Source: a bacterium (lineage in GTDB: Bacteria; Planctomycetota; JACOTG01; JAUIME01). From it: a DNA stretch of 32,122 bases. The notes below the pieces were generated by a model. The model did not search any database and was not told the DNA's origin. It saw nothing but the letters and a program-made list of their open reading frames with translations. This document shows, one piece after another, positions 1,110 through 32,122 of the stretch; position 1 is the first letter of the stretch, and the number at the start of each line of letters is the position of its first letter. Where the stretch lies: positions 1 through 32,122 of the forward strand of contig JAUIME010000001.1 in the NCBI GenBank assembly GCA_030433195.1, read 5' to 3'. Made by a program: the position numbers and the translations under genes.

Positions 1110-1292
1110 CGAAGGCTCCTGTATTCTTCAGGGGTTCACGGCGGCCGGGAGCGGGGCGACTCTCTCCCCAACAGGCGTGTCGTACATCCGACCGACATCC
1201 CGGGCCGCAGCTAATCTAGCTAGGGAATCTCCGTACCGTCAACCGGCGCCGGTTCGGGCCGGGCGCGGCCGATTCGAGGGGTCGGCGTCCCG

Positions 1293-2084: not shown

Positions 2085-2749
2085 CCTTGGAACAGTCCCT
2101 TCCCGATGCCCACGAACTCCCCGAGGATGCCGCGCATCAGCGTGTCGGAGTGACCGAAGAGCTCGCATGTGCCGAAGATGGCCGCGAAGAGCGCGTTCGA
2201 GATCGCGGGCACGTAGAACACGGCGGCCAAGAGGATCAGGATACCGTATGGAGCGACGGCCTCGTATGCCCGACGCGCCCCTCCGGGCAGGAAATGTTTC
2301 ACGATGTGCGATCCGTCGAGCGGCGGGATCGGCATGAGGTTGAAGAACGCGAGCAGCAGATTCAGGAACGCCGTGACCCCCATGAGGATGGTGGCGCCGT
2401 TCTCGAGCGACGCGTCACCGAAGATCGGCACGTGCATCAGCAGCAGGAACGCGGCCGCGATGGCGAGGTTCGTCGCCGGACCGGCCGCGGTGACGAGGAT
2501 GTCGTCGACGACGGGCCGCCGCAAGTTCGAGGTGTTGACGGGGATGGGCTTCGCGCCACCGAAGAGGAACCCCGCGAAAAAGTACGAGAGAGCCGGCACG
2601 AGCAGCGTCATGAACGGGTCGATGTGCACGACCGGGTTGAACGTGAGACGTCCGAGCCTGCGCGCCGTCGGGTCGCCGCAGCGATCGGCCACCCAGCCGT
2701 GCGCGACCTCGTGCGCAACGACCGAGAGCACGAAGAACGCGAAACACAC
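2081..2749 (-). CDS. Site-2 protease family (peptidase M50) integral membrane metalloprotease
   Basis: HEVAHG (HExxH) sits in the first TM segment. Also present are RLTFNPVVHIDP, multiple hydrophobic helices and LMPIPPLDGSHI (the M50 LDG motif). The tracked start is the GTG at 2747-2749. The frame stays open to 2797, and an ATC at 2768-2770 sits 6 nt after AGGAGG, so the true start may be 2770. Confidence 0.8.
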   Translation of the reverse strand: MCFAFFVLSVVAHEVAHGWVADRCGDPTARRLGRLTFNPVVHIDPFMTLLVPALSYFFAGFLFGGAKPIPVNTSNLRRPVVDDILVTAAGPATNLAIAAAFLLLMHVPIFGDASLENGATILMGVTAFLNLLLAFFNLMPIPPLDGSHIVKHFLPGGARRAYEAVAPYGILILLAAVFYVPAISNALFAAIFGTCELFGHSDTLMRGILGEFVGIGKGLFQG

Positions 2750-2950
2750 AGCGACGAGAGCGAGCTCGATGACAGGCCTCCTGGCTCGACGGTAAAGTCA
2801 GCGCAACCCCGGTTGCAGCGGGGAATTATAGCAGCGCGGCGGGGCGCTTCCAAACCGGTCTCGCGGTTTACACTGCCTGCCGGCACTGATAAACTCCGAT
2901 CGGCCCGCGGCTTCCTGCCTCCGCGTTTCCGGTTTCGCACCGCCATCACC

Positions 2951-2970
2951 TCGGATCCGCTCGGATCCGC
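2951..2970. repeat. Perfect 10-bp tandem duplication (tcggatccgc x2) in the M50/kdsD divergent intergenic region
   Basis: Read directly: tcggatccgc at 2951-2960 and again at 2961-2970. Confidence 0.6.
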
Positions 2971-3004
2971 ACGTTTCGGGCCGGCATCCTTCGGACCCGC
3001 GCCG

Positions 3005-3047
3005 TTGCCGAAAGACGCCGTGCCGAAGACGCCGTGCCGAAGACGAA
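3005..3047. repeat. About three tandem copies of a 14-bp unit (gtgccgaagacgcc) spanning the predicted kdsD start codon
   Basis: ttgccgaaagacgcc (3005-3019), gtgccgaagacgcc (3020-3033) and gtgccgaagacgaa (3034-3047). The third GTG is the tracked kdsD start. Confidence 0.6.
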
Positions 3048-4077
3048 CAAAGAGGACACGCTCGTGAGCGACGAAACGCCCGTGAAGGTCGAAGCGCTCG
3101 AGGTCGATGCGCTCGAGTACGGCCGCTGGGTCGTCCGCACCGAGCTCGAAGCCGTCGGACTCCTCATCGATCGCCTCGACGGCGCCTTCCGACGCGCGGT
3201 CGACCTCATCTTGGGGTGCATCGAGTCGCGCGGCCGCACCGTGGTCACGGGGATGGGCAAGCCCGGGATCATCGCCGCGAAGATCTCCGCCACGATGGCC
3301 AGCACCGGGACGCCGTCCCTGTGCCTGAACCCGGCCGACGCCTACCACGGCGACCTCGGCCGCATCGTCGGCGACGACGTGATCCTCATCCTGTCGAACA
3401 GCGGCACGACGTCCGAGGTGACGCGTCTCCTGCCGCCGATCAAGCGCATCGGCGCCAAGACGGTCGCGATCACGGGCGACGCCGAATCGCCGCTCGGGCG
3501 GCATTGCGACGTGTTGTTGAACATCGGCGAGATCGCCGAAGCGTGCCCGATCGGGCTCGCGCCGACCGCGAGCACCACCGCGATGCTGGTCCTCGGCGAC
3601 GCGCTCGCGATGACGGTCGCGAAGATGCGCAACTTCACGCCCGAGGAGTACGCTTTCTATCACCCGGGCGGCAGCCTCGGTCGCAGACTGCTGAAGGTCG
3701 GCGAGATCATGCGAACCGGCGACGCCACGACGGTCGTTCGTGCGTCCGATACCGCGCTCGCGGCGCTTCGCGCCATCAACGAGACGAAGGGCCGACCCGG
3801 CGCCGCGTCGGTCGTCGACGACGACGGCATCCTGTGCGGATTCGTGACCGACGGCGACATCAACCGCCGGCTCGGCAGCGAGACCGCGTTTCTCGAGCGC
3901 CCCGTGAGCGAGATCATGGCGCGCGACCCGAAGACCGTGAACCCCGACCGACTCGCGTCCGAGGCCGTGCGGATCCTGCGTGAGCACAAGATCGACCAGC
4001 TCCCCGTCGTCGACGACGGTGGGCATCCGGTCGGCCTGCTCGACGTCCAAGACCTCATGGATACCGGCGGCGTTTGA
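3034..4077 (+). CDS. kdsD: Arabinose-5-phosphate isomerase (KdsD/KpsF type; SIS domain plus tandem CBS domains)
   Basis: SIS motif GRTVVTGMGKPGIIAAKISATMASTGTPS, then LSNSGTTSEV. The C-terminal CBS pair is EIMRTGD...VVDDDGILCGFVTDGDI and IMARDPKTV...QLPVVDDGGHPVGLLDVQDL. The start is GTG. An alternative GTG at 3064 cannot be excluded. Confidence 0.9.
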   Translation: MPKTNKEDTLVSDETPVKVEALEVDALEYGRWVVRTELEAVGLLIDRLDGAFRRAVDLILGCIESRGRTVVTGMGKPGIIAAKISATMASTGTPSLCLNPADAYHGDLGRIVGDDVILILSNSGTTSEVTRLLPPIKRIGAKTVAITGDAESPLGRHCDVLLNIGEIAEACPIGLAPTASTTAMLVLGDALAMTVAKMRNFTPEEYAFYHPGGSLGRRLLKVGEIMRTGDATTVVRASDTALAALRAINETKGRPGAASVVDDDGILCGFVTDGDINRRLGSETAFLERPVSEIMARDPKTVNPDRLASEAVRILREHKIDQLPVVDDGGHPVGLLDVQDLMDTGGV

Positions 4078-4109: not shown

Positions 4110-4640
4110 GTGTCCGAATCGCAAACCGAACCCGATCTCGAGCGTATCCGCTTTCTGGTCCTCGACGTCGACGGAGTCCTCACCGACGGCGGCATCCTCG
4201 TCGACGACGACGCGCGCGAGTCGAAGCACTTCGACGTGTACGACGGCATCGCGATCCGTTGGTGGATCCAGGCCGGACACAACGTCGCGATCCTCTCGGG
4301 TCGATCGTGCCGCGCGGTCGATCACCGCGCGGCCGAGCTCGGCATCTCGCCCGTCGTGCAAGGATCGAAAGACAAGGTCATGCATCTCGAGCGGATGCTG
4401 CGCGACCTCGAGTTCACGATGGACGAGGTGTGCTACATCGGTGACGACCTACCCGATCTCGGCGTGATGCGCCGCGTCGGCTTCGCGGTCGCGCCGGCGA
4501 ACGCGCGCCCCGAGGTGAAAGAGCGCGTTCCGTTCGTCACGCGAGCGGGCGGCGGATGCGGCGCGGTGCGCGAGCTCATCGAACATTTGCTGCGTGCCCA
4601 AGGCCGCTGGCAGTCGATCGTGGATCGACACGACGTATGA
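4110..4640 (+). CDS. kdsC: 3-deoxy-D-manno-octulosonate-8-phosphate phosphatase (HAD-IIIA, KdsC)
   Basis: IRFLVLDVDGVLTDG (DxDG nucleophile motif), FDVYDGIAIRW, ILSGR, the KdsC-typical GSKDK, and YIGDDLPDL. It lies directly downstream of kdsD. The start is GTG. Confidence 0.9.
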   Translation: MSESQTEPDLERIRFLVLDVDGVLTDGGILVDDDARESKHFDVYDGIAIRWWIQAGHNVAILSGRSCRAVDHRAAELGISPVVQGSKDKVMHLERMLRDLEFTMDEVCYIGDDLPDLGVMRRVGFAVAPANARPEVKERVPFVTRAGGGCGAVRELIEHLLRAQGRWQSIVDRHDV

Positions 4641-4650
4641 GGCGGATCGC

Positions 4651-7600
4651 ATGAAGCGAGTCGCACTGTTCCTCGTTTGCTTCGTGGTCAGCACGGGAAT
4701 CGTCGTCTGGCTCGTCGGCGGCATTCGGTCGCCGCTGAAGCCCGACGAGGACCGCGTGCCCGCGGAGCGCCCCGAGGAGTCGTCCGCGGGCAAGCTCCAC
4801 CCCCTCACGAAAGGCGACACGCGCGGCGTCTACATCGGGACCGTCTCGGGCGGCGAGATCAACCGCTACGAGGAGATCATCCACGAAGACGGCACCGTCG
4901 AGCACATCCCGCGCGAGACGTTCCGCTACGACAGCGCCGAGCCTTCGTCGAGCAAGCTCGGAGTCGTGCGAGGGCTCACGGGCACGTTCTACGACGACAA
5001 GGGAAACGAGTCCGCGCACGTGACGAGTGACCGCGCATCCGTGCGACTCGACGAGAAGACCGACGAGGTCTCGCAGATCTCGCTCGAAGGCGACGTCCGC
5101 TTCGAAGAACGCCAGGGAGCGACGCGGATCGGGTCGCTCGAAACTCCCGCCCTCGTGATCCGTTTCGCATCCTCGACGGATTCGACGAGCGACGCCGCGG
5201 ACGAGAGCGACGACGAGCGCACACCGACTCCGTCGCGTCCCGTGCTGTCGTCCGACGATCTCGTGACGATTCGCAAGGACGGCATGGTGCTTCGCGGCAC
5301 GGGCTTCCATGGCGACGTCGAACTGCGCGACTTCCGCATCGGCTCCGACGTCGAACTCGTCGTCGAATCCGACGCCGGGCTCTCGATGCCGGACATGCTC
5401 GGCAGCGGTGCCGACGACTCGAGCGGTCCTTCGTGGAAGATCGAGTCGCCCGGATCGCTGATCCTGAGCGGCGCGCCCGACGAAGGCGCCAAGGCCCCGA
5501 CCCCGACGAAGCGCAAGGGAGGGTGGGGCGTCAGCGAGGCAACGGTACGGTTCACCGACCGCACGACGCTCTCGCAGGGCGAACAACGGCTCGAAGTCGG
5601 CGCGCTCGAGATCGGCCTCCAGGCGGTGAAACCGACCGAATCGAACACCGGCGCGGCGAAGGACCCCGACGCGCGCGACGGGCGCGGCAATCTCCAAGCC
5701 AAGCGCCTCTTCGGATCGAACGGCGTCGTGTTCCGAGACGGGCAGATGGAGACTCGATCGCGCACGATCGAATGCAACGCCGGCGACGAACCGACGCTGC
5801 TGACGCTGGCGGGGTCGCCGCGTATCGTCATGAGTCAAGACGGCGGCCCTTCCCTCTTCGGCGAATCGGGCGGCGACGCGTCGGGGCTCATCACCGTCGA
5901 GTGCTCGGATCGTATCGAGCTGCGCTCGGATCCCGAGGCGGCGCGACGCGACGTCCAGTGTTTCGGCGACGTCCGGATCTACGAGGGTCGTACGTTCGAT
6001 CCGGCGAAGCCCGGCCTCTCGTCCGACCACATCGCGCTCGTCATCGACGAATCGGGCGACGTCACGCAGCTCGAAGAGCTCGTCGCGACCGGCTCGGTCG
6101 AGATCCGCGATCCCGAGTTCGTACTCACGGGAGGACGCTTCGAGCTCGTCCGCAGCGGGAACGCGCAAGAATTCGATCTCGTCATGAGCCGACGTCCCGA
6201 ACTGCGGCTTTCCGGTGCTCCGATCCAAGGCTTCCAGATGGATCTGCTTCCGGGTGCCGGATCCGACGTCGATGCCGAAACGTCCGATGCGAGCTCGCAG
6301 CTCGTCGCGAGCGCGGTCGACCGGATCGTCGTCTCGCGCGAAACCGAGGCGACGACGCTCATCGACTTCCTGGGCGGATTCACGATGCAGCGGCGCGTCA
6401 GTGACGAGCTTCTCGGCCAACTCACGTCCGAGAGCATGCTCCTCTCGATGCAGAAAGACGAGGCCGGCAAGTCGCGCCTCGCGTCGTGGAACGCGAGCGG
6501 CGACGTGCACTACGAGTCGCCCGAGGGTGAAGCCGTCGGTGACCACCTGAGCTATTCGAAGAGCGAAGGCCGCGTGCGTTTGCTCGGGACTCGCGGCGCA
6601 CATCGCGCGATCCTGCGATTCACGGATCCCGACGGCGGCGAGCCGCAGAAGCTGCTGGCCGAGACGTTCGTCTACATCGTCGACTCCGACGCGTTCGAAG
6701 CCGAGGGGCGTGTCGAAGGCGAGTTCACGACGGACGCCGTCGCCTGGGAATCGCTCGCCCGACGCGGCGACGACGACAAGGATGCCGAGGCCGACGCGAA
6801 CGATGCGACGAAGCCCGACCCGGCCGAACCCCCGCAGCGCTGGATCCTGAAGTGCGACGAGGCGGACATCGCGCTCGTTCGCGGTGGCGAGGACGACGAG
6901 TCGGACGCATCCGACGCGCGCGACGATGCCGCGAGCGGCACCGCGGACGACGAAGAGCGCGGTCCCTCGACGCAGCTCGCGTACTTCGACGCGCGCGGCC
7001 GCGTGCGGCTCGACGGCGAATCGCAGCGCGTTCGCGCCGAGCAGGTGACGTACAGCGCCGTGAAGAACAACGTGCTCATCCGCGGCACCGACGCCGAGCC
7101 CGCGTTGTTGTCGACACGCGACACCACTCTCGATCGACGCGCGGAAGACGAAACTTCGGCCGACGCTGAGCCTCGTCCCGAGGAATGGAGTTCGGTCGCG
7201 AGCTCTTGGTTCGACATAGACACCGAGAACGAGGTCGTACGCTGCGAAGACGGTGGTCTGCTCACGTTCCACGTCGAGGACCTGCTGTCGCGCGATCGCA
7301 GCACGACGCCCGAGCGACTCGTGACGACGATCTCGTGCACAGGGCTCATGGAGTTCCGGCGCGATCGCGACGCGAGCTTCCACGACGACGTGCGCGTCAC
7401 GCAGATCGGCGCCGGCGACACGCCCGAGCGTCCGCGCACGAGGCTCGAGTGCGGCTACATGCACGTCGCGCTCGAGCCCGAAGCGTCGACCGACGACGAA
7501 TCGCCCGTTGCCGACACGCGCAGCGCGACCGAGGCCGTCGGCGGTCTGCGGGTGCGCAAACTCACGTGTGAGCACGATGTCGTCGTGCGCCACAAGAACC

Positions 7601-7806
7601 CGAACGTCGTGGCATCGGGTGAGTACTTGGAACTCGTCACGCGAGAAACGATGATCTACGTCCACGGCGGCAACAAGAACGTCTTCTTCCGCCGCGACGA
7701 CGGCACGTTCGAGCCCAAGTCGCTGCGCTACGACTACAAGGCGGGCAAGGTCGAAGTGTGGCAGTTCAATTACACGGGCGGGCGGGCGAGCGCAGAAAGG
7801 AACTGA
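4651..7806 (+). CDS. Giant membrane-anchored periplasmic protein made of repeated LptC/LptA (OstA-like beta-jellyroll)-like modules. Putative LPS-transport bridge protein.
   Basis: The ATG at 4651 gives MKRVALFLVCFVVSTGIVVWLVGG, a single N-terminal TM anchor like LptC. It lies 10 nt after kdsC and ends 10 nt before lptD. One pattern recurs: a short strand, then G-D/S-V-x-hydrophobic, then 'main strand'. Examples are LEGDVRFEERQG, FHGDVELRDFRIGSDVELVV, GSNGVVFRDGQMETRSRTIEC...LTLAGSPRIVM, CFGDVRIYEG...ATGSVEIRDPEFVLTGGRFELV, ASGDVHYESPEGEAVGDHLSYSKSEGRVRLLG, ARGRVRLDGESQRVRAEQVTYSAVKNNVLIRG and CEHDVVVRHKNPNVVASGEYLELVTRETMIYVHG. The CDS itself is solid; the functional assignment is inference. 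Confidence 0.6.
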   Translation: MKRVALFLVCFVVSTGIVVWLVGGIRSPLKPDEDRVPAERPEESSAGKLHPLTKGDTRGVYIGTVSGGEINRYEEIIHEDGTVEHIPRETFRYDSAEPSSSKLGVVRGLTGTFYDDKGNESAHVTSDRASVRLDEKTDEVSQISLEGDVRFEERQGATRIGSLETPALVIRFASSTDSTSDAADESDDERTPTPSRPVLSSDDLVTIRKDGMVLRGTGFHGDVELRDFRIGSDVELVVESDAGLSMPDMLGSGADDSSGPSWKIESPGSLILSGAPDEGAKAPTPTKRKGGWGVSEATVRFTDRTTLSQGEQRLEVGALEIGLQAVKPTESNTGAAKDPDARDGRGNLQAKRLFGSNGVVFRDGQMETRSRTIECNAGDEPTLLTLAGSPRIVMSQDGGPSLFGESGGDASGLITVECSDRIELRSDPEAARRDVQCFGDVRIYEGRTFDPAKPGLSSDHIALVIDESGDVTQLEELVATGSVEIRDPEFVLTGGRFELVRSGNAQEFDLVMSRRPELRLSGAPIQGFQMDLLPGAGSDVDAETSDASSQLVASAVDRIVVSRETEATTLIDFLGGFTMQRRVSDELLGQLTSESMLLSMQKDEAGKSRLASWNASGDVHYESPEGEAVGDHLSYSKSEGRVRLLGTRGAHRAILRFTDPDGGEPQKLLAETFVYIVDSDAFEAEGRVEGEFTTDAVAWESLARRGDDDKDAEADANDATKPDPAEPPQRWILKCDEADIALVRGGEDDESDASDARDDAASGTADDEERGPSTQLAYFDARGRVRLDGESQRVRAEQVTYSAVKNNVLIRGTDAEPALLSTRDTTLDRRAEDETSADAEPRPEEWSSVASSWFDIDTENEVVRCEDGGLLTFHVEDLLSRDRSTTPERLVTTISCTGLMEFRRDRDASFHDDVRVTQIGAGDTPERPRTRLECGYMHVALEPEASTDDESPVADTRSATEAVGGLRVRKLTCEHDVVVRHKNPNVVASGEYLELVTRETMIYVHGGNKNVFFRRDDGTFEPKSLRYDYKAGKVEVWQFNYTGGRASAERN

Positions 7807-7816
7807 GTCGAACGAC

Positions 7817-10471
7817 ATGGGGAGGGGATTCCGTCGCATCGCGAGGGGCGTCGCGATCTCGACGGCGCTCGCGCTCGGTCTCGCTACGGGTCCGTTCGCG
7901 CTCGCGCAGTCGACCGCACCGCCCCCGACCGAAGAGCCGCCGCGCTCGACCGAAACCGTCGATTCGTCCGACACCTCGAAGGCCGTGGGCGAAGAGAAGT
8001 CCGCAGACGAACGCGAACGCGGCTCGCGTCGCCGAAAGCGCGAGCTCTCGCGGGCGGAGCGCGTCGAAGCGATCCTGTCCTCGCTTCGCGAAGGGCGCGC
8101 GCGCGTCGGCGCCGAGCTGTTCACAGGGTATCGCGAGCCGGCCATCGGCGTCTTCACGGGTGACTTCACGGTCGTCAGTCGCGAATTCACGCTGCAGGCC
8201 GACAATGCCGTCATCTGGCTCGAATCGTCCGAAGACGACGAAGAAGAGACGTTCGACCCCTACGCGATCGACGCCCAGGGAAATCCGAAGGACGCCCCGC
8301 CGAAGTCCGAGAACGACGCCGATCCGGAAGGATCGAGCGAGGCCGACGACGAAGACCTGGGCTCGGGGTTCGACGTCCCCGTCGACCGCGTGCGCGCGAT
8401 CTATGCGGAAGGTGACATCCTCTTCACGAGCGGCAGCGAGGTCGTCCGGACGGAACGCCTCGTGTTCGATCTTCCGACGCGGCGCTTGATCGCGTTCGAC
8501 GGGCAGCTCAAGAGCGTGTCCGAGATCGAACGACGCGGCGTGCGCAAGCAGATCCCGCTGTTCATGCGCGCCGCCATCATCCGCCAGACCGGCGACACCA
8601 TCGCGGCCGAGCGCGGCTTCGTGAGCAACTGCGGCTACGGCGCCGACGTCTTCCACGTGCGCGCGGAAGAGGTCGAGGTCGAGCTCGCGAACGAGCTCAC
8701 CGACGGACCCGACGACGAGACGGTCTACCGCTTGAAGCGCGGCGTCGCGTCCTCGTGGGGCATACCGTTCTTCTACGTGCCGTCGTTCGAAGGGACGGCC
8801 GGCGGTCCTTCGGGCTTCTACTTCAAACGTGCGCGTGCGGGCCACTCGTCGCAATTCGGCGCCTACCTCGAGACCGAGTGGGGCGACGACATCAAGATCG
8901 GCGAGAAGGGCGATCGTACGAAGATCGGCGACTGGACCGTCCACATCGATCCGCTCGAGAAGCGCGGCGTCGGGCTCGGGCTCGACCTCGCCTACAAGGC
9001 CGCGACCGGCTACGGAAACTTCCTGTCGTACTACATCCACGATCACGCCGACGAAGACCGCAAGGGACGCACGATCGATCCCGACACGGGCCAGCGCACG
9101 CGCATCCCGATCGACAATGCGGACCGCGCGCGATTCCGGCTGCAGTATCGCCACTTCCTCCCCTGGGACGTGGAGGGGACGTTCGAATACTCGTGGATTT
9201 CGGACCCGAACTTCCTGCGCGAGTACTACGAACGCGAGTTCAAGCAAGGGAAGGAGCAAGAAACGGTCGCCTACTTCAAGAAGGTCGTCGGCAACAACGC
9301 GTTCACGCTTCTGCAGCGCAACCGCGTCAACGACTTCCAGGAGCAGACCGAGTACTTGCCGCAGGCCGAGCATCGGCTCATCGAGCAGCCGGTGCTTCCC
9401 GAGCTCGTACTCGGCACGAACCTGTACTACTCGACGCGCAGCGTGCTCGGCAACATCCGTCAGCGACCGTCGTCGGAAGGGCCGCCGCTCACGGACGTCG
9501 ATCGCACCCGCATCACGCGCTTCGACACGACGCATCGCGTGTCGTCGCCGTTCACGATGGGGCCCGCCGTGCTGCGGCCGTTCTTCGAGGCCGGCGCCGC
9601 GAGCTTCTCGGAGACACGCGCCGAGGAAGGGCCGACGAATCGCTTCACGGCCGCGTTCGGTGCGAGCCTCGCGACCCAGATCCATCGCACGTTCGACGTC
9701 GAGAACCGCCTGCTCGGCATTGACGGGCTACGCCACATCGCCAACCCGATCGTCACGTACACGAACCGCTACGCGAATACGGTGGGCTCGACCGAGTTGA
9801 TCCCGCACGACGAGATCGAAGACCTCGACAAGGTCGAGTTCGTGCGCTTCCAACTGCGCAATCGCCTGCAGACGAAGCGACGCGACCAGGTCGTCGACTT
9901 CATCGACTTCGACAGCGCTATCAACATCTTCCCCGACGAGGAGCGCGACAACGTGAACCGCACGTGGGGCGACCTCGAGAACGACCTGTTCATTCGCGTC
10001 AACCGCCATACGACGCTCTTCTTCGAGTCGGAATGGGACTTCCGCGACGACGATTTCGAGGTGCTGAACACGGGGATTTCGACGAGGCCGCTGGAAGGCC
10101 TGATCTTCCGCGTCTCGTATCGCGAGTTCCAACAGCGACAGCGATTCATCACCGGCCTCATCGGAATCACGCTCAACGAAAAGTGGTCGGCGCAGTTCTT
10201 CGAACGCTACGACTTCGAACGCGAGCAGAACCAGGACTTCGGCATCGTCTTCGCGCGCAAGGGTTGCGGCTGGGTGACCGAGTGGTCGATCACGCACGAC
10301 GGCGGCGACAACGATACGCGCATCTCGCTCAACATCACCCCGTCGGCCTTCTACCGGGGTCCGAGTCGAAAGCGCGGCTCCTGGGACGACGAGGTCTATT
10401 CGTCGTTCATCGATTTGAGCGAGGAGGAGCCGATGTTCGGAGAGGACATCGACGAGGGTGAAGTAAGGTAA
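7817..10471 (+). CDS. lptD: LPS-assembly outer-membrane protein LptD (OstA family)
   Basis: Signal peptide MGRGFRRIARGVAISTALALGLATGPFALAQS. The N-terminal OstA_N-like region reads FTLQADNAVIWLE...IYAEGDILFTSGSEVVRTERLVFDL. The C-terminal portion is large, rich in aromatic/Gly/Asp beta-strands and typical of the LptD barrel (WGIPFFYVPSF, YLPQAEHRL, many YxF/WxF alternations). Its position after kdsDC and the lpt-like gene fits. Confidence 0.78.
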   Translation: MGRGFRRIARGVAISTALALGLATGPFALAQSTAPPPTEEPPRSTETVDSSDTSKAVGEEKSADERERGSRRRKRELSRAERVEAILSSLREGRARVGAELFTGYREPAIGVFTGDFTVVSREFTLQADNAVIWLESSEDDEEETFDPYAIDAQGNPKDAPPKSENDADPEGSSEADDEDLGSGFDVPVDRVRAIYAEGDILFTSGSEVVRTERLVFDLPTRRLIAFDGQLKSVSEIERRGVRKQIPLFMRAAIIRQTGDTIAAERGFVSNCGYGADVFHVRAEEVEVELANELTDGPDDETVYRLKRGVASSWGIPFFYVPSFEGTAGGPSGFYFKRARAGHSSQFGAYLETEWGDDIKIGEKGDRTKIGDWTVHIDPLEKRGVGLGLDLAYKAATGYGNFLSYYIHDHADEDRKGRTIDPDTGQRTRIPIDNADRARFRLQYRHFLPWDVEGTFEYSWISDPNFLREYYEREFKQGKEQETVAYFKKVVGNNAFTLLQRNRVNDFQEQTEYLPQAEHRLIEQPVLPELVLGTNLYYSTRSVLGNIRQRPSSEGPPLTDVDRTRITRFDTTHRVSSPFTMGPAVLRPFFEAGAASFSETRAEEGPTNRFTAAFGASLATQIHRTFDVENRLLGIDGLRHIANPIVTYTNRYANTVGSTELIPHDEIEDLDKVEFVRFQLRNRLQTKRRDQVVDFIDFDSAINIFPDEERDNVNRTWGDLENDLFIRVNRHTTLFFESEWDFRDDDFEVLNTGISTRPLEGLIFRVSYREFQQRQRFITGLIGITLNEKWSAQFFERYDFEREQNQDFGIVFARKGCGWVTEWSITHDGGDNDTRISLNITPSAFYRGPSRKRGSWDDEVYSSFIDLSEEEPMFGEDIDEGEVR

Positions 10472-11038: not shown

Positions 11039-13639
<2,601 letters not shown>

Positions 13640-15959: not shown

Positions 15960-17408
15960 TCACCGTCGAATCCGGGCTTCGAAGTCCTTGGTGAGGTACG
16001 CGACGTCGTGGTCGGACTCGACCATCTTCGAGATCTTCTCGATCGCGTACATGACGGTCGTGTGGTCGCGTCCACCGAAGTGCTTGCCGATCTCCTCGAG
16101 CGACAGGCTCGTGAGATTGCGCGCGAGGTACATGCAGATTTGCCGTGGGAACGTGAACGACTTGAGGCGTCGCTTCGACTCCAGATCGGCCTTCTTGACG
16201 CCGAAGTGCCCGGTCACGACGCGCAGGATGTCGTCCATGTCGGGGCCGCTCGTACGGCGCTCGGGGACGTCCATGAGTGCTTCGCGTGCGAGATCGAGAT
16301 TGGCGACCCGTCGCGTCAGACGCGCGTAGCCGACGATCTTCGTGATCGCGCCTTCGAGGTCTCGGATGTTCGATTCGATCCGCTCGGCCGTGTAGTGCGC
16401 CACGTCCTCGGGGAGTTCGAACTCCATGAGCGTCGCCTTGTTCTTGATGATGGCGACGCGCGTCTCGTAGTCCGGCAACTGCAGATGCGTGACGAGTCCC
16501 CAATTGAAGCGCGAGACGAGCCGCTCTTGGATCGAGCTGAGCTCGCTCGGCGGGCTGTCGCACGTGAAGACGATCTGTTTCTGCGAGTTGTAGAGCGTAT
16601 TGAACGTATGGAAGAACTCCTCTTGCGTGCGCTCCTTCTTGGAGAGGAACTGCACGTCGTCGATGAGGAGCATGTCGACGTGTCGGTAGTTGTACCGGAA
16701 CTCGTCGATCTTTCCGTTCTCGATCGCCGAGATGAAGTGGTTCACGAACGTTTCGCACGACAAGTAGAGGAAGCGTTCGATCTTCTTCTTCTGCAGCAAC
16801 GCATGACAGATCGCTTGCAGAAGATGCGTCTTTCCGAGGCCGACCGAACCGTGTAGGAACAACGGGTTGTAGGCACTCCCCGGTGAAGACACAACCGCTA
16901 GCGCTGCCGCGTGTGGAACACGGTTCGACGGCCCGACGATGAAGTTCTGGAACGAGTAGTTCGGATTGAGTTCCGACGCACTCGACGTCAGGTACGAGCC
17001 GTTGCCGTTTCGAGGGGCGTCCATCGCGTGCATCGGTCCGGCGAGCGGCGCACGGTTCGACTCGACGTCGGGGCCGGCGGGCTTCGATTCCGTAACCGTT
17101 TCGATCTCTGTGGCTTGCGCGAACTCGACAGAAGGCTCGTCACGCTGCGATTCGTCGACGACGAAGACCACCTGACGCTTGCGTCCCGTGATTCTGCGCG
17201 CCGAGTCTTCGATCACGCGGACGAAGTTCTTGCGAAGGAGCGTCTCCTTCGTGAACTGGTTCGGAACGAGAAGCTCGAGCGATTCGTCGGTGAATGCCTG
17301 GGGAACGAGCTGTGCAAACCACGTCTGGAACTGCTGCGGAGTGCAGTTGGCCTGGATTTCCGACAGAACGTTCGACCAGACGACGTTCCCTGAAGTCGAA
17401 ACTCCCAT
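15960..17408 (-). CDS. dnaA: Chromosomal replication initiator protein DnaA
   Basis: Domain I: VWSNVLSEIQANCTPQQFQTWF. AAA+ motifs: NPLFLHGSVGLGKTHLLQAI (Walker A), MLLIDDVQFL (Walker B) and FHTFNTLY. Domain IV: RQICMYLARNLTSLSLEEIGKHFGGRDHTTVMYA. The ATG at 17406-17408 is preceded by GAGGGG with a 6-nt spacer. The tracked ORF starts 20 codons earlier. Confidence 0.95.
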   Translation of the reverse strand: MGVSTSGNVVWSNVLSEIQANCTPQQFQTWFAQLVPQAFTDESLELLVPNQFTKETLLRKNFVRVIEDSARRITGRKRQVVFVVDESQRDEPSVEFAQATEIETVTESKPAGPDVESNRAPLAGPMHAMDAPRNGNGSYLTSSASELNPNYSFQNFIVGPSNRVPHAAALAVVSSPGSAYNPLFLHGSVGLGKTHLLQAICHALLQKKKIERFLYLSCETFVNHFISAIENGKIDEFRYNYRHVDMLLIDDVQFLSKKERTQEEFFHTFNTLYNSQKQIVFTCDSPPSELSSIQERLVSRFNWGLVTHLQLPDYETRVAIIKNKATLMEFELPEDVAHYTAERIESNIRDLEGAITKIVGYARLTRRVANLDLAREALMDVPERRTSGPDMDDILRVVTGHFGVKKADLESKRRLKSFTFPRQICMYLARNLTSLSLEEIGKHFGGRDHTTVMYAIEKISKMVESDHDVAYLTKDFEARIRR

Positions 17409-17677
17409 GTCGTACCCCTCCCCGTTCGCCCGCCGCAGTCGAATCACCCGCCTCAGAGATACCGTCACTCCGAAAGGTTCCGCTGGAATTCCGCGAGGAA
17501 TGTGAGGCGCAACGTGGAGTGCCGTCCGAAAACGCGAGCCGCGATGATATCAGCGACACTCGTGATGTCAAAGCGATTCGATCGCGAGGCGCCGGATGAT
17601 CACGACTTAGACGGTACCGCGACCCGAAATCCACAAGCGGACTAACACGTTGCAAACATCGCGAAGCACGTAAGATT

Positions 17678-25835: not shown

Positions 25836-26657
25836 TCAGACGCGCGTGTCGTCCCTCGTGAGGATGTTCTGGAGCTTGCGGAGGGCTTCGTTCTCGATCT
25901 GCCGCACTCGCTCGCGCGTGAGGTTGACGCGCTTGCCGATCTCCTTGAGCGTCATGGGCTCCGTGTTGCCGAGGCCGTAGCGCAGCTTGAGGATCTTCGC
26001 TTCGCGCTCGTCGATCGTCCCCAGCACTTCCTGCAGCTTCTCGAGATCGAGCGCCTCGAAGAGCGCCTTGTCGGGCTGCGTCGCGTTCGTGTCTTCGAGC
26101 ACGTCACTCAGCGACCACAGCACGTCGAGGCTCGTCGACTGCGACGACGACGTGTACGTTCGGATCGCGCGCTTGATCACGCCGACGCTTTCGGGAGCGA
26201 TGTTGAGCTCGATCGCCACTTCGGCGACGCTCGGCTGGCGGCCGAGCTTGTACTGCAGCTCCATCGAGACCGTCTTCCACTTGTCGATGATCTCGACCAT
26301 GTACGACGGGACGCGAACGGTCTTGACCGTGTTCACGAGCGCGCGGCGGATCGACTGCTTGATCCACCAGGTCGCGTACGTGCTGAAGCGGCACTCTTCG
26401 TCCGGATCGAAGCGCTCGACGGCCTTGAGCAGGCCGAGGTTGCCTTCTTCGATGAGGTCCATGAACGAGAGCCCGCGATTGATGTAGTTCTTCGCGATGC
26501 TTACGACGAGGCGGAGGTTGGCGCGGATCATTTGCTCGCGTGCGGCGGGGTCGCCGACACGGATCTTGCGAGCGAGATCCTTCTCCTCGTCCGCGGTCAG
26601 GAGCGAGACCTGGTTGATCTCCTGGAGGTACGTTTCGAGGGCAGACTCTCTGGCGAT
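25836..26657 (-). CDS. Sigma-70 family RNA polymerase sigma factor (RpoD/RpoS-like, group-2-like, about 273 aa)
   Basis: Region 2: LRLVVSIAKNYINRGLSFMDLIEEGNLGLLKAVERFDPDEECRFSTYATWWIKQSIRRAL. Region 3: VRVPSYMVEIIDKW. Region 4.2: LKEIGKRVNLTRERVRQIENEALRKL. The tracked ORF starts at ATG 26531. My hand translation of the same frame upstream gives SALETYLQEINQVSLLTADEEKDLARKIRVGDPAAREQ (regions 1.2/2.1). The 5' end given here is the ATC at 26655-26657, 6 nt after GGAGGA. The start codon remains uncertain (see findings). Confidence 0.85.
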   Translation of the reverse strand: MARESALETYLQEINQVSLLTADEEKDLARKIRVGDPAAREQMIRANLRLVVSIAKNYINRGLSFMDLIEEGNLGLLKAVERFDPDEECRFSTYATWWIKQSIRRALVNTVKTVRVPSYMVEIIDKWKTVSMELQYKLGRQPSVAEVAIELNIAPESVGVIKRAIRTYTSSSQSTSLDVLWSLSDVLEDTNATQPDKALFEALDLEKLQEVLGTIDEREAKILKLRYGLGNTEPMTLKEIGKRVNLTRERVRQIENEALRKLQNILTRDDTRV

Positions 26658-27010: not shown

Positions 27011-28414
27011 TCAATAGGCGTTGGGCTGTCGGAAGACGATGCGGACCGTGCGGAGCATGATCCGGAAGTCGAACCAGAGCGACCAATGCTCGAGATAGTA
27101 GAGGTCGTATTGAAGGCGCTTGCGGAGCGAGGTGTTGCCGCGCCATCCGTTGACCTGCGCCCAGCCCGTGATGCCGGCCTTGATCTTGTGCCGCATCATG
27201 TATCGGGGGATCGTCTCCTTGAACGTCTGGATGAATACCGGTCGCTCGGGACGCGGGCCGACGATACTCATGTCACCGCGCAAGACGTTGAAGAACTGGG
27301 GGAGCTCGTCGAGGCTCAGGCGGCGCAGCCAACGTCCGAGCCGCGTGGGACGTGGATCGTCTTCCGTGGCCCAGGTCGCGCCGGTGTCCGCTTCGGCGTC
27401 CTCTCCCATGGTGCGGAACTTCACGATCCGGAAAATGCGGCCGTCGAAGCCCATGCGCTCTTGGACGTAGAAGACGGGGCCCTTCGAGGAGAACTTGATG
27501 AGGAGCGCGATCGCCAAGAAGAGCGGGGACAGGAGGAACAAGAGCGCGGTCGAGACGACGACGTCGACGGTGCGCTTCAGAATGCGGTTCCAGCCATCGA
27601 TCGGGCTTTCGCGAACCGCCATGACGGGGAGCCCATCGAGATCGGCCAGGTGAGGCTTGAGAGAAACGAGCCGAGGGAACTCGGGTACGAAGCGAATGTC
27701 GACCGTCTCGCGCGAGAGCGTGTCGAGCAGAGGATCGATCGCGGGATACTCTTGCAGGGGCAGCGCGATGTAGATCTGGTCGATGCGGTGCTTCTGGACC
27801 CAAGCGAGCACCTCCTCGGTCTTGCCGAGGACCGGGATGTCGAGGATCGTCTTGCCGATCCGTGAGGTCCGATCGTCGAAGAAGCCGAGGATGCGGATCC
27901 CGGTCCAAGGATTCTTGAGCAGGTGCTCGGCCGTCGTCTGGCCGAGTTTGCCGGATCCGACGATGATCACGTGACGCAGGTTCCAACCGCGGGCTCGAAC
28001 GCGTCGCAGCACGAAGCGGATGGTGATGCGCGTCATGCTGAGCAGCGCCACGTTGAACACGCAGAAGATCACGAGGACCGCGCGCGAGAACTCGAACGAA
28101 CGATAGAAGAAGCTCCCGGCCGCGAGAAGAAGGGCGGTGAGCACGGTCGCTTTGGCGATATCGACGACTTCGCGCGGAATGCGGTCCACGCGGCGCGGCA
28201 CGTAGAGGCGCTGCCAGCTGTAGGTGATGGTGCAGATGAGCAAGCAGGCTGGAATCGCGCGCAGGTACTCGGCTGCGTCGGGGATGCCGAAGGGCGTCGG
28301 GATCAGGCCGCTATGGAAGCGCAACCAGAAAGCGGCGGAGAACGCGCCGATCGTGACCACGACGTCGACCAGGAAGATCAACGTCACCAAGAGTTGGTGG
28401 TATCGCTTCAGCAT
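27011..28414 (-). CDS. Undecaprenyl-phosphate hexose-1-phosphate transferase (WcaJ/WbaP-type polyprenyl glycosylphosphotransferase)
   Basis: Four or five N-terminal TM helices, then a central Rossmann-like segment (VIIVGSGKLG). The C-terminal 'bacterial sugar transferase' domain reads KRTVDVVVSTALLFLLSPLFLAIALLIKFSSKGPVFYVQERMG, IVKFRTM, DPRPTRLGRWLRRLSLDELPQFFNVLRGDMSIVGPRP and GITGWAQVNG. Confidence 0.9.
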   Translation of the reverse strand: MLKRYHQLLVTLIFLVDVVVTIGAFSAAFWLRFHSGLIPTPFGIPDAAEYLRAIPACLLICTITYSWQRLYVPRRVDRIPREVVDIAKATVLTALLLAAGSFFYRSFEFSRAVLVIFCVFNVALLSMTRITIRFVLRRVRARGWNLRHVIIVGSGKLGQTTAEHLLKNPWTGIRILGFFDDRTSRIGKTILDIPVLGKTEEVLAWVQKHRIDQIYIALPLQEYPAIDPLLDTLSRETVDIRFVPEFPRLVSLKPHLADLDGLPVMAVRESPIDGWNRILKRTVDVVVSTALLFLLSPLFLAIALLIKFSSKGPVFYVQERMGFDGRIFRIVKFRTMGEDAEADTGATWATEDDPRPTRLGRWLRRLSLDELPQFFNVLRGDMSIVGPRPERPVFIQTFKETIPRYMMRHKIKAGITGWAQVNGWRGNTSLRKRLQYDLYYLEHWSLWFDFRIMLRTVRIVFRQPNAY

Positions 28415-28708: not shown

Positions 28709-28736
28709 TTGACGGTGCCCTGGCGCGCAGTATAAT
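28709..28736 (+). promoter_or_regulatory. Near-consensus sigma-70 promoter upstream of the HPr-fusion gene
   Basis: TTGACG (28709-28714), a 16-nt spacer, then a perfect TATAAT (28731-28736). This lies about 89 nt upstream of the GTG at 28825. A hexamer pair this good is conspicuous in such GC-rich DNA. Confidence 0.5.
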
Positions 28737-28824
28737 GACGGCGCGCGGGCGGCGCTGAGTCCCCCTTTTTCGCGTCTCACTTCCATCGCCCGCGAAACTC
28801 CTCTCGGTCCTTTGAGGAACCATC

Positions 28825-30138
28825 GTGTCCAGTTCAGTCGACGAGTCCCTGGCGAAGATCATCAGCGAGGAGGACTTCCGCAAGCTCCTCCAGCGGGAGA
28901 TCCAAGGCTTGTTGAGGATTCGCAACTTCCTGCAAGGCCTCAGCGGGGCCCCCACGATGAAGCGGTTCTACTCGTGCCTCATGGAAGAGGCGCGAGAGCT
29001 CAAGAACTTCCTCGATGACTTCGATGCCCGCAACAACCAGCGCTACGCCTATCTGACCGAGCTCGTATTGTCGCTCGTGAGCTTCAGCGCGGTCGGCTAC
29101 CTCGTTCGTCACGTGTTGATGCGGTATCCGCGCTACCATCTTCGTGATGATCGAGACCATTTCATCGAGTACCACAAGATGGCCGAGGAGGTTCTGTCGG
29201 GGTGCCACGGTGCGATTTTACGGTTGTTCGACGCGGTGCATCGCGAATGCGTCGAAGAGCTTGAGATTCGGATTCCCGAAGACCGCGTCGACGAGGCGAG
29301 CTTCACGGACCCGTTGCCGCGCATGCACTTGCCGCATACCGTCGACGATGCCGACGAGAAGGTCGAGAGCGGCGAAGCGCCGATGGTCGCGACGATGTTC
29401 CTGCAGTTGGCCGACCAATTTGAGCACCTCGTCGTGTCCAGCGATCTCGAACCAGGGGCAATTGTCGAGTTCTTGGCCGAGCAATGCACGGAAGACCATC
29501 TTCGGCGGTGGGAGGCGCAGATCTACGTCGTCCAGCGCAAGTACGACACCGTCATCAAGGGGTCGCCGATCGAAGGGAGAGAGGACCGCGTGCGCGCGCT
29601 TCGCGGCCATATCTCCATGGTACTACACCACTTCGAGATGGTTCGGTACCAATCGCATTTCCTCGAGCATCTGCGAGAAGGAATCCGGTGCCGACTGTCC
29701 GCCGGTAAGCTCGGTGAGGTCATCGAGTGGGATGCGCTCGTGCGTCAGCTCTACGAATTCTCGTTCGGGAAGGCCTTGCACTACATCAAGCAGGGCCGCG
29801 AGCTCGCGAAAGAGATTCTGGGGAAGTACACGAACGTCCTCGAGCGCGAACTCGAAGTTCCGGGCGACGTCGTGCTGCATGCTCGCCCAGCCTCGTTGAT
29901 CGTCGGGATCGTGAACTACCACGGTACCCCCGTGTCTCTGCGCGTGGAAGGCGAGACGTGCGACGCGAGCTCGATGATCCAGGTCATGATGACTGTCGGG
30001 CGGCATTCCGAGGCGCGGGCCGTCACGTTCCTCGGTGATGAGAAGCCCCTCGACCACCTCGAGCTCCTCTTCCGGCACCGTCTCGGCGAAGGCGGACTCG
30101 ACGGGCTCCCGAGTGAGCTCGAGTACCTTCGCGGCTGA
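28825..30138 (+). CDS. Uncharacterised helical N-terminal domain (about 340 aa) fused to a C-terminal HPr-family phosphocarrier domain
   Basis: The GTG start is preceded by GAGGAA. The C-terminal 95 aa (nt 29851-30135) read LEVPGDVVLHARPASLIVGIVNYHGTPVSLRVEGETCDASSMIQVMMTVGRHSEARAVTFLGDEKPLDHLELLF. This shows the HPr His-site motif (LHARPA) and a Ser 31 residues later followed by MIQVMMTVG (compare S-I-M-G-V-M-S-L-G). I recognise no motif in the N-terminal part. Confidence 0.8.
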   Translation: MSSSVDESLAKIISEEDFRKLLQREIQGLLRIRNFLQGLSGAPTMKRFYSCLMEEARELKNFLDDFDARNNQRYAYLTELVLSLVSFSAVGYLVRHVLMRYPRYHLRDDRDHFIEYHKMAEEVLSGCHGAILRLFDAVHRECVEELEIRIPEDRVDEASFTDPLPRMHLPHTVDDADEKVESGEAPMVATMFLQLADQFEHLVVSSDLEPGAIVEFLAEQCTEDHLRRWEAQIYVVQRKYDTVIKGSPIEGREDRVRALRGHISMVLHHFEMVRYQSHFLEHLREGIRCRLSAGKLGEVIEWDALVRQLYEFSFGKALHYIKQGRELAKEILGKYTNVLERELEVPGDVVLHARPASLIVGIVNYHGTPVSLRVEGETCDASSMIQVMMTVGRHSEARAVTFLGDEKPLDHLELLFRHRLGEGGLDGLPSELEYLRG

Positions 30139-30271: not shown

Positions 30272-31003
30272 CTATTGGCCGACTTTCAAACGTTCGCCGA
30301 GAATCGTCGGGAGGCCCGCATCGATGATCTTTCGGGCCGCCGCGTCGACATCGTAGGGGACGCGATGGCGGACGATGCGCTTCTCGTCGGAGTCGTAGAC
30401 CACGCACGACGCATCCGGATTCTGGTCACGCGGCTGTCCGACGCTTCCGACGTTGACGAGCGCCTTGTCGAACGGTTCGAGGCGGACGTCGGGATCGATC
30501 GTCACGAGCAGATTGTGCGCGGCAAGAAACGTGATGGGTACGTGCGAGTGCCCGAAGAAGCACAGGGTCGGACCTCCTTCAGGCATCGCGCCGAGGCAAC
30601 CCTCGGCCTCCTCCCATGACATCACGTACTCGAACTGCTCAGGGTGGTCCAACGAGCTATGGACGAGAATGAAGTCGTCGATCGTGCGGGTCAGCGGTAG
30701 CTCGGTGAGGCTCTCGAGATCGGCGGGGGAGAGACGCTCGCGCGTCCATAGGATCGCGGTCCGCGCGGTGTCGTTGAAGTAGGTGATGTCGAGGGCCCCC
30801 GCCGCCGCGAGGTCGTGATTGCCGGCAACCGACTGGACGTTGCGGTCCCGAAGCCGAGCGAGGCATTCGGTAGGCTGAGCCCCGTAGCCGACGATGTCGC
30901 CGATGCACAGGATGCGGTCGAGGCGCTCAGCGTCGAGCCGATCGAGGACCGCATCGAGCGCGTCGAGGTTGGCGTGAATGTCACCGATGATTCCGTAGCG
31001 CAC
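30272..31003 (-). CDS. Calcineurin-like metallophosphoesterase (YfcE/MJ0936-like family)
   Basis: RYGIIGDIHANLDALDAVL (motif I, GDxH), ILCIGDIVGYG (GDxxD-type), VAGNHD (GNHD), GHSHVP and VNVGSVGQPRD. I prefer the GTG at 31001-31003, with GGGAG 7 nt upstream. The 60 extra codons of the tracked ORF (to 31183) look non-coding. Confidence 0.8.
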   Translation of the reverse strand: MRYGIIGDIHANLDALDAVLDRLDAERLDRILCIGDIVGYGAQPTECLARLRDRNVQSVAGNHDLAAAGALDITYFNDTARTAILWTRERLSPADLESLTELPLTRTIDDFILVHSSLDHPEQFEYVMSWEEAEGCLGAMPEGGPTLCFFGHSHVPITFLAAHNLLVTIDPDVRLEPFDKALVNVGSVGQPRDQNPDASCVVYDSDEKRIVRHRVPYDVDAAARKIIDAGLPTILGERLKVGQ

Positions 31004-31210
31004 CGCATGCTCCCGAGCTGCTCGAAGGAAGGTGGAAGAGAGAGTCGAACCCGGTTCATCGTGCGATCCGTGCGGATTTGCGATGAAGCGCGATACGACG
31101 TTGTGCCCTTGCCTGAAGACGGGTTCGCAGGGCCGCAACCCGCGTATGGGCCACACAGTACGCCTCGTGGGGTGTTTCTGCAACGCCCTAGCGTCGGAAA
31201 CGTCGATTCG

Positions 31211-31969
31211 TCAGGTTCTACGAATCGCGTTCACCGTCAAGGCGAGGCAAACGAAGAGCATGGATTGGGCGCACGCGAGGCCGAACGAGTCGAAGGACGA
31301 GACGTGACCTGCGCCGGTGGGCCGCGCCAGTTGCGAGAGCGTGAAGTCGGGCCACAGAAAGAAGAGCGCCCCGAGGCGCGAGGCTACCCAAGGAGTGCCG
31401 ACAAGACTTGCGGCCACGAGCGCCAGGCACAGCGGGGCCGCAATGGCCGGACGAACCACGGTCGAGACGAGGCAAGAAAGCGTCGCAACGAGCATCACGA
31501 AGCCGAGCGCTCGAATCGCAAGTTCTCCCCAGCCGACGGCCAGAGAAGAAGGAGGCGGTGTGACGATGCAAGCGACACCGCTCGAGAGGCACCAAACGAC
31601 GATTCCGATCGAGACGGACGCGATGATCCCGGCAAGCGGAATCGATGCGATCGACCGAAGGCGCATCTCCATCAGCGGGGCCGGTCGGCTCCTGTGGAGT
31701 TGATGACAGTACATCCCGAGGAGAGCTGTGACTCCAGCGCTCATCCAGGCGAAGTCGAGGGCCACGCTTCGCGTCATGCTCGAGGGCGCGTCGATCCAGA
31801 AGACGGTCGACTGAGGCGCGAGCACCGTGAGGGCCAGGAACGTCGCGACCATCCAGAACAGCGCGCGCGCCCTGAGAATCCCAGATGTCTCGGCTACCGT
31901 AAGTACGCAGATTTCACGAAACAGGGCCCAACCCTCGAAGGAACTCGTCAGGGATTCACTTGCCGGCAT
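31211..31969 (-). CDS. Hypothetical polytopic membrane protein (about 6 predicted TM segments)
   Basis: Hydrophobic stretches include ALFWMVATFLALTVLAP, VALDFAWMSAGVTALLGMY, IPLAGIIASVSIGIVVWCL, LGFVMLVATLSCLVSTVV, APLCLALVAASLVG and LACAQSMLFVCLALTV. I chose the internal ATG at 31967-31969 because the preceding 46 codons are P/S/R/H-rich. No family was recognised. Confidence 0.45.
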   Translation of the reverse strand: MPASESLTSSFEGWALFREICVLTVAETSGILRARALFWMVATFLALTVLAPQSTVFWIDAPSSMTRSVALDFAWMSAGVTALLGMYCHQLHRSRPAPLMEMRLRSIASIPLAGIIASVSIGIVVWCLSSGVACIVTPPPSSLAVGWGELAIRALGFVMLVATLSCLVSTVVRPAIAAPLCLALVAASLVGTPWVASRLGALFFLWPDFTLSQLARPTGAGHVSSFDSFGLACAQSMLFVCLALTVNAIRRT

Positions 31970-32122
31970 GGTAGCAAGTGCCGAATGGCGTTGGTTCGGG
32001 TGGCACCCCTTCGGCAGTCTCGACGATGTCGACGGGCGTGGGTGATGGTTGGTCGGCGGGGATCGAGAGGAGGGGACGAGCAACCCCGATCTCTCGAGGG
32101 TGAGCATTCGCGTGGTGCGCCC

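Follow-up and report, generated by a model that had tools for sequence, protein, structure and literature searches.

An HPr domain joined to a predicted helical domain in a protein family encoded mainly by Planctomycetota

What is an HPr domain doing at the end of a large helical protein, and what could it control there? The question is raised by a gene, here called X, as is its protein, in a 32,122-nucleotide stretch of DNA from a bacterium of the Planctomycetota (assembly GCA_030433195.1, contig JAUIME010000001.1, positions 1 to 32,122; the window). X (28825..30138, + strand) has a GTG start and encodes a protein of 437 amino acids. This contains an N-terminal helical domain (residues 1–336, 28825..29832, +), an HPr domain (residues 339–418, 29839..30078, +), assigned with Pfam family PF00381 and by Foldseek, and a conserved carboxy-terminal tail of 19 residues following the HPr fold (30079..30135, +). 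[quoted passage not shown]

The PF00381 profile matches residues 340–390 of X with 25.8 bits, above its gathering cutoff of 23, and was matched by all 43 of the aligned family members (43/43), with a best E-value of 2.7e-9. The NCBIfam profile TIGR01003 gives 33.5 bits on X, under its cutoff of 47.9, and solved HPr proteins are the top sequence matches of X in the Protein Data Bank (PDB), albeit weak ones (E-values of about 0.006–0.05). In the AlphaFold2 model, the open-faced beta-sandwich of HPr is present, with beta-alpha-beta-beta-alpha-beta-alpha topology. Its strands are formed by residues 339–344, 370–374, 377–380 and 399–404, and its helices by residues 353–366, 384–393 and 406–417. When this part of the model is compared by Foldseek with PDB entries 3LE1, 1KKL and 1POH, template-modelling (TM) scores of 0.77–0.83 are obtained, with root-mean-square deviations (r.m.s.d.) of 1.8–2.0 Å. 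An earlier reading of this DNA, made from its letters alone (the sequence-only reading), had placed an HPr domain at this end of X; the profile match over the cutoff, the HPr fold at an r.m.s.d. of about 1.9 Å and the conserved phosphorylation sites bear it out.

The equivalent of the phospho-accepting His15 of HPr is His352 (codon CAT, 29878..29880, +), located in the sequence VVLHARPAS, which contains the H-A-R-P motif. The equivalent of the regulatory Ser46 is Ser383 (codon TCG, 29971..29973, +), followed by MIQVMMTVG. The two residues are 31 positions apart, as are His15 and Ser46 in HPr; motifs and spacing are as first read. Conservation was counted over 241 representatives, which include a short class of about 435 residues and a long class of 505–553 residues. 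Of 195 short-class representatives, 194 have His352, as do 37 of 39 in the long class (231/234). Arg354 is found in 195/195 and 38/39 (233/234), Pro355 in 230/234, and Ser383 in 191 of the 195 short-class representatives. The residue preceding Ser383 is Gly, Ala or Ser, and the usual Lys, Arg or Asn is not seen there. Also conserved in the domain are G404 and D405.

Compared with HPr, NPr and Crh (the members of PF00381), the C-terminal 80 or so residues of X have the same fold, the same His15-Ala-Arg-Pro sequence and the same Ser46 spacing, with the equivalents of Gly54 and Gly67-Asp-Glu also kept. In the PDB sequence alignment, the sequences HARPASLIV of helix 1 and S-M-I-Q-V-M of the Ser46 region are near canonical HPr, which suggests, as far as sequence can tell, that these surfaces are compatible with the usual EI and HprK partners. 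There are also differences. The strict PROSITE-type HPr histidine signature is G-[LIVM]-H, whereas the protein in the window has V-L-H; in the short class the Gly is replaced, with Val, Thr, Gly or Ile at position 350, and the long class has Gly there. X likewise falls short of the TIGR01003 cutoff. Finally, canonical HPr is a free protein of 85–90 residues, while the HPr domain of X follows a helical domain of 336 residues and precedes the 19-residue tail. The tail has the consensus GExGLxxLPxxLxYLR, with G421, E422, G424, P429, L432, Y434 and L435 each conserved in at least 80% of the sequences. It is modelled at a predicted local distance difference test score (pLDDT) of about 90 and is shared by the long class.

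Could the two domains have been joined artificially? A frameshift or an assembly error, or an HPr signature arising by chance, is a general possibility for any such fusion, and the family itself provides an example of an artefact. In P0165 (locus L005, 6278–8347), X runs on into a Metallophos_2 frame, and the contig is marked as 1x in its name. This was considered as a Rosetta-stone fusion of X and Metallophos_2 and rejected; the tail looks out of frame and, given the 1x contig, an indel artefact is probable. For the fusion of X itself, an artefactual origin has a negligible probability. Searching for homologues gave 122 full-length proteins, about 432–450 residues in length, mostly from metagenome-assembled genomes (MAGs) of Planctomycetota where the source is named, and one from Engelhardtia mirabilis (P0075, locus L001), a strain in culture with a complete genome sequence. 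When a profile of the 336-residue N-domain was searched exhaustively against 1.84 billion cluster representatives, 447 matched with E-values up to 1e-3, of which 217 with E-values up to 1e-30, and a relative is encoded in at least 284 species-representative genomes. Together with the PF00381 match in each of the 43 aligned members and an AlphaFold2 model that is continuous and confident over the domain junction, this conserved full-length architecture refutes the artefact.

The fusion is also constant. Every full-length N-domain match inspected has an HPr-like domain; the four shortest-looking matches, when read, proved to be cut at one end and are probable fragments. Among the profile matches inspected there is no evidence of an N-domain without an HPr-like domain. 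Public databases label the homologues either "HPr family phosphocarrier protein" or "hypothetical". The long class, with about 39 representatives, has the N-domain and tail of the short class, and an HPr-like domain in which the sequence GFHVRPS is found and an insertion of about 90 residues follows the Ser region. Examples are P0201, P0213, P0224, P0144, P0156 and P0251 (loci L006–L008 and L092–L094). Long-class genes have different neighbours, such as those for an FHA-domain cyclase, a hybrid histidine kinase and a permease fused to EIIA_2. The long-class member P0231 (L095, 8001–10280) carries an N-terminal TIR domain, and a TIR gene of the ThsB type is found next to it; possibly this is a form of the family that belongs to a defence island. 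Membership of X in a defence system was considered and rejected, as PADLOC finds no defence-system match for X and, in P0231, matches the TIR part alone.

The N-terminal domain is predicted to be a bundle of twelve helices spanning residues 15–335, with a less confident loop at about residues 146–183, which holds the invariant L169 and the near-invariant P170. Predicted alone, the domain has a pLDDT of 90.5 and a predicted TM score (pTM) of 0.88; for full-length X, modelled from a 43-sequence alignment, these values are 90.2 and 0.83. Its conserved motifs are FLDDxxARxN (residues 62–71), LP (169–170), ExxxRxxExxxxxxQxxYDT (223–242), LRGHxSxxxH (259–268) and HFxE (278–281). The conserved polar residues are D64, N71, H96, Y104, E223, R227, Q237, Y240, D241, E250, R260, H268, H278 and E281, to which D65, E79, R100 and T242 are added in the class of about 435 residues. 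At least 90% of the family has R282 and H283, where the clade of the window has H and L.

No family could be assigned to this domain, as had been stated from the sequence alone, and while AlphaFold2 predicts it to be helical, Pfam, NCBIfam, the PDB profile search and Foldseek yield no recognised relative. On the 43 members, Pfam finds no family other than PTS-HPr that recurs in more than two members, and NCBIfam has no family for the domain. The PDB profile search gave no family either, returning weak histone H2B matches only, with an E-value of 8e-4 on a tandem chain and otherwise of 0.03 or more. These centre on the helix-loop-LP stretch; the likeness was judged to be due to chance. Against the PDB, the best Foldseek E-value for the N-domain is 0.04, with TM scores of at most 0.33, and the matched structures are G-protein-coupled receptors, CusC, PvRBP2 and a CHAD domain; against BFVD, Foldseek found nothing. 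The architecture was not found described in literature searches. Judged by these comparisons and searches, X joins HPr to a partner domain for which no relative can be recognised, in an undescribed architecture; the N-domain would be a new protein family and, from its model, possibly a new fold.

The sequence-only reading had seen in this region spacings rich in His and Glu, reminiscent of a metal or di-iron site. In that form the proposal is not supported: DHFIEYHKMAEE (residues 111–122) is not conserved in the family, and of HHFEMVRYQSHFLEH only H268, H278 and E281 are conserved, with E271 present in most members. The N-domain contains no conserved ExxH pair, and ferritin-like and hemerythrin-like folds are absent among the Foldseek matches.

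The conserved residues do raise another explanation, which we consider rather unlikely: X could be a self-contained phosphotransfer enzyme, in which a phosphodonor or acceptor (such as a nucleotide, phosphoenolpyruvate, polyphosphate or a metabolite) would sit in a conserved polar pocket of the N-domain and His352 would act as catalytic phospho-intermediate, in the manner of DhaM-DhaL or the phospho-His domains of EI and PPDK. The constant fusion and short linker agree with this, and D64, N71, H96, R227, Y240, D241, R260, H278 and E281, together with E79 and R100 of the short class, are typical of phosphate or metal sites. However, Pfam, the PDB profile search and Foldseek reveal no likeness to a fold of a kinase or phosphatase or to one that binds nucleotides, few phosphotransfer enzymes are all-helical, and R282 and H283 have been replaced in the clade of the window itself. 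The sole bacterial Foldseek lead is the polyphosphate-binding CHAD domain (PDB entry 6QVA), which, like the N-domain, is all-helical, has about 300 residues and contains conserved His and Arg. Its Foldseek probability of 0.87 is the highest of all N-domain matches, but the TM score of 0.31–0.33 and the r.m.s.d. of 17.6 Å are at noise level, and Pfam CHAD (PF05235) has no match in the 43 members at E-values up to 5. A CHAD-like N-domain was rejected, and CHAD is not regarded as a relative.

How the two domains are connected sets X apart from other HPr fusions. FPr consists of EIIA-Fru and HPr, DhaM of EIIA-Man, HPr and the amino-terminal part of EI, and the multiphosphoryl transfer proteins of HPr, EI and EIIA. 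In these, as in X, HPr is covalently linked to another module; in X, however, there is no EI, EIIA or EIIB, the partner is all-helical, and the linker has about three residues instead of being long and flexible. X therefore lies outside the known HPr-fusion families, as had been proposed, given that Pfam and NCBIfam find no EI, EIIA or DhaM-type domains in it. In the AlphaFold2 model, the helix of residues 302–335 leads almost directly into the first HPr strand (residues 339–344). Because of this junction of about three residues, and of the pTM of 0.83 for full-length X compared with that of the N-domain alone, X is predicted to be a rigid two-domain unit. That X as a whole is a cytoplasmic signalling protein whose two parts form one rigid unit is a possibility that we put forward tentatively on the basis of the models.

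If the HPr domain is phosphorylated, from where would the phosphate come? Among 20 large open reading frames (ORFs), which cover most of the window but not every ORF, Pfam detects no EI or EIIA, and tblastn, run on the window with proteins for EI, HPr and EIIA as queries, yielded none either; HprK was not among the queries. The claim that the window holds no EI, EII, HprK or PtsN gene is upheld by both methods for EI and EIIA, but does not extend to HprK. In Planctomycetes, EI, HPr and HprK have been reported to be present without PTS transporters (PMC2405797). One locus with a family member shows PTS genes close by. In L095, a cluster of EI, HPr, EIIA(Ntr), hpf and DUF502 genes lies about 5 kb from the gene for P0231 (neighbours at 863–3871 and 6715–7266), and a separate, free HPr is encoded next to EI. 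The L095 EI query returned only its close relatives, the named ones belonging to Phycisphaerales, Sedimentisphaerales and unclassified Planctomycetota; judged by these, L095 appears to come from Phycisphaerales or Sedimentisphaerales.

These observations bear on whether X might be an ordinary phosphocarrier of a regulatory PTS, its N-domain serving to oligomerise, localise or scaffold, and its output passing through unlinked partners. We hold this to be improbable, more so than the enzyme. The canonical helix 1 and Ser46 region do point to EI and HprK as partners, as is usual, a family member does coexist in L095 with genes for EI, HPr and EIIA(Ntr), and the name given to these proteins in databases says as much. 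Nevertheless, the free HPr beside EI in L095 argues that X is not simply the HPr of that organism, some 20 polar residues that stay invariant in 447 diverged representatives would not be expected of a scaffold, and the tight tether and conserved tail argue for a functional two-domain unit.

What is encoded around X gives a further indication of its role. Neighbourhoods were compared over 85 non-duplicate loci of the class of about 435 residues. A sigma-70-family gene lies upstream of X and is divergent from it in 82 of the 84 loci that could be evaluated. Downstream, a homologue of the metallophosphoesterase in the window is found in 71 of 80 evaluable loci; it is convergent in 67, and in four it is co-directional and starts 3–71 bp after X. 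A divergent sigma gene, X and a metallophosphoesterase gene thus form a conserved three-gene arrangement, and X is not the orphan gene it had been taken for. Compared with the proteins of the window, X has a median identity of 35%, the sigma factor one of 61% and the phosphoesterase one of 45%. In the window, the sigma-70-family gene (25836..26657, − strand) encodes an RpoS/RpoD-like protein with regions 1.2, 2, 3 and 4, of which Pfam recognises regions 2, 3 and 4; its best NCBIfam matches are RpoD_Cterm and RpoS, both under cutoff. The metallophosphoesterase (30272..31183, −), convergent with X, is of the PPP/ApaH-like type and matches Pfam Metallophos. Its closest PDB match is entry 3RQZ (E-value 4e-41), deposited merely as "Metallophosphoesterase", with weaker matches to ApaH and the lambda Ser/Thr phosphatase.

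Between the sigma gene and X, the window contains a divergent gene for a WcaJ-type sugar transferase (27011..28414, −; Bac_transf and CoA_binding_3 in Pfam). Both this transferase and the convergent metallophosphoesterase had been named as neighbours by the sequence-only reading, and Pfam confirms them. A transferase gene at this place occurs in 9 of the 85 loci, all of the clade of the window; from this distribution, it is an insertion specific to that clade. Among other variants, one MAG (CAZQZX01, loci L011 and L012) contains two blocks of sigma, Bac_transf, X and phosphoesterase genes, with X proteins 70% and 61% identical to that of the window, which reflects either a genuine duplication into paralogues or a bin of mixed content. 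In L002, a separate co-directional Metallophos_2 gene follows X (11361–11849), and in L009 an acylphosphatase gene (10136–10405) comes directly after the metallophosphoesterase gene.

Taking domains and neighbours together, the most reasonable reading of the N-domain/HPr combination is that of a phospho-switch for an effector domain, and the built-in switch proposed from the sequence alone is kept in that sense. More specifically, and with less than even confidence, we suggest by analogy that X may be an HPr-gated regulatory protein in a sigma/X/phosphoesterase module, in which phosphorylation of HPr would switch the N-domain, the sigma factor being the likeliest target. The HPr domain would be phosphorylated on its His by an EI-type enzyme, on its Ser by an HprK-type kinase, or on both, with EI and HprK supplied by the regulatory PTS, devoid of transporters, that has been reported for Planctomycetes. 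Depending on its phosphorylation, the HPr face would then pack differently against the polar surface conserved in the N-domain, or be released from it, and this change would switch the activity of the N-domain towards a partner, most likely the RpoS/RpoD-like sigma factor encoded next to it. The neighbouring metallophosphoesterase would be a candidate phosphatase for resetting the switch.

A precedent for such control exists in E. coli, where dephospho-HPr controls the anti-sigma-70 factor Rsd (HPr-Rsd co-crystal structure, PDB entry 4XWJ), so that the phosphorylation state of HPr governs a helical sigma-binding protein. X would resemble this system in that its helical domain is fused to HPr and that it is encoded beside an RpoD/RpoS-like sigma gene. 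It differs in that the N-domain has no detectable likeness to Rsd in sequence or fold and is twice its size, and sigma binding by X is hypothetical. The X locus also recalls the partner-switching systems (RsbV/RsbW/RsbU with SigB, and SpoIIAA/AB/E with SigF), which likewise combine a sigma factor, a phosphorylatable switch and a phosphatase. Domain scans, however, detect no STAS domain, GHKL kinase or PP2C phosphatase in X or its neighbours, the candidate phosphatase is of the calcineurin-like/ApaH class, and the genes are divergent and convergent instead of forming an operon. Because the defining domains are absent, X is a member of neither the HPr-Rsd nor the partner-switching families.

Several observations weigh against the sigma factor as target of an HPr-gated X. 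An Rsd-like N-domain was considered and rejected: hhalign gives a probability of 0.3% against E. coli Rsd (a weak test, with Rsd as a single sequence), Rsd is not in the top 50 Foldseek matches of the N-domain, and there is no match to Pfam Rsd/AlgQ (PF04353), nor does Foldseek reveal any other anti-sigma fold. Binding of the sigma factor by X would be deduced from gene adjacency, and genes for sigma and anti-sigma factors are usually co-transcribed rather than divergent. Outside the lineage such adjacency is lacking, namely in a Nitrospinae MAG (L047) and in the long-class loci L006, L092, L094 and L095. The architecture of X persists where the sigma neighbour is absent, which would suit the self-contained enzyme, for which the sigma adjacency would be incidental; the invariant polar residues of the N-domain (three Arg, and His, Asp, Glu, Asn and Tyr) may fit an enzyme site equally well. 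Furthermore, because the region is near the replication origin (dnaA, gyrB, parB) and generally syntenic, the sigma/X adjacency may in part be plain inherited gene order; L010, where the sigma/X pair is kept although the other neighbours differ, speaks against this.

For the HPr-gated regulator, the most elaborate version has X as a single-polypeptide switch, in which an HPr domain charged by the transporter-less PTS and reset by the phosphoesterase gates an N-domain that sequesters and releases the RpoD/RpoS-like sigma factor. Extrapolated from the analogies above, this complete scheme is unlikely, less probable than the general one. If true, it would be a new direct link from the PTS to a sigma factor in a planctomycete lineage that includes Engelhardtia (proposed phylum Saltatorellota). 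Bacteria of the planctomycete group have PTS proteins without sugar transporters, for which X would be a concrete and widespread candidate output device, and the family member in the cultured Engelhardtia mirabilis makes the hypothesis directly testable.

Upstream of X, a Shine-Dalgarno-like GAGGA (28814..28818, +) was read from the sequence 6 nt before the GTG. Further upstream, a sigma-70-type promoter-like site, TTGACG-16-TATAAT (28709..28736, +), agrees with the consensus at 11 of 12 positions. The sequence-only reading had called it the best promoter match in the window; the 11/12 match is correct, but it is joint best, tied with TTGACA-16-TATCAT, which has an extended TG and is located at 17571–17544 (−), just upstream of dnaA (15960–17468, −). 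The hexamers of the X site are identical in L011 and weaker versions are present in L012, L020 and L021; the remaining family loci compared contain no equivalent. A sigma-70 promoter of X conserved throughout the family was rejected, the site being confined to the clade of the window. For the 5′ untranslated region of X, Rfam gave no match and the fold z-score is −0.9, with no indication of a regulatory RNA.

The start of the neighbouring sigma gene is unusual. Region 1.2 (IARESALETYLQEINQ...) lies in the same frame but upstream of the first ATG, and between the upstream stop codon and region 1.2 the window contains no ATG, GTG or TTG. The probable start is an ATC at 26657–26655. When orthologues from loci L001–L090 were compared, the aligned start codon in 75 distinct loci was ATT in 53, ATC in 18, and ATG, GTG or TTG in 4. 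As a rule, a Shine-Dalgarno sequence of the GGAG type is located about 5–10 nt ahead of this codon, and in 23 loci a canonical in-frame start upstream is wholly absent. From these alignments, the gene almost certainly uses a conserved, non-canonical AUU or AUC start codon, recalling the IF3-sensitive AUU starts such as that of infC. Because the start codon is non-canonical, some gene callers truncate the sigma factor at an internal Met.

Three further large ORFs in the window are without a Pfam match: 4576–8214 (−), 2608–4050 (−) and 31211–32107 (−), encoding 1212, 480 and 298 residues, respectively. The last is located downstream of the phosphoesterase gene and gave no tblastn match in related loci. 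The region between 11039 and 25749, near the replication origin, contains gyrB, dnaA and genes for a class-V aminotransferase, a GT4 glycosyltransferase, a PIG-L deacetylase, BshC, a methyltransferase, pyrF, a GATase and DUF502; much of this order is found again in several related loci. The PIG-L deacetylase and BshC are of a bacillithiol-type thiol pathway (bshABC near the origin).

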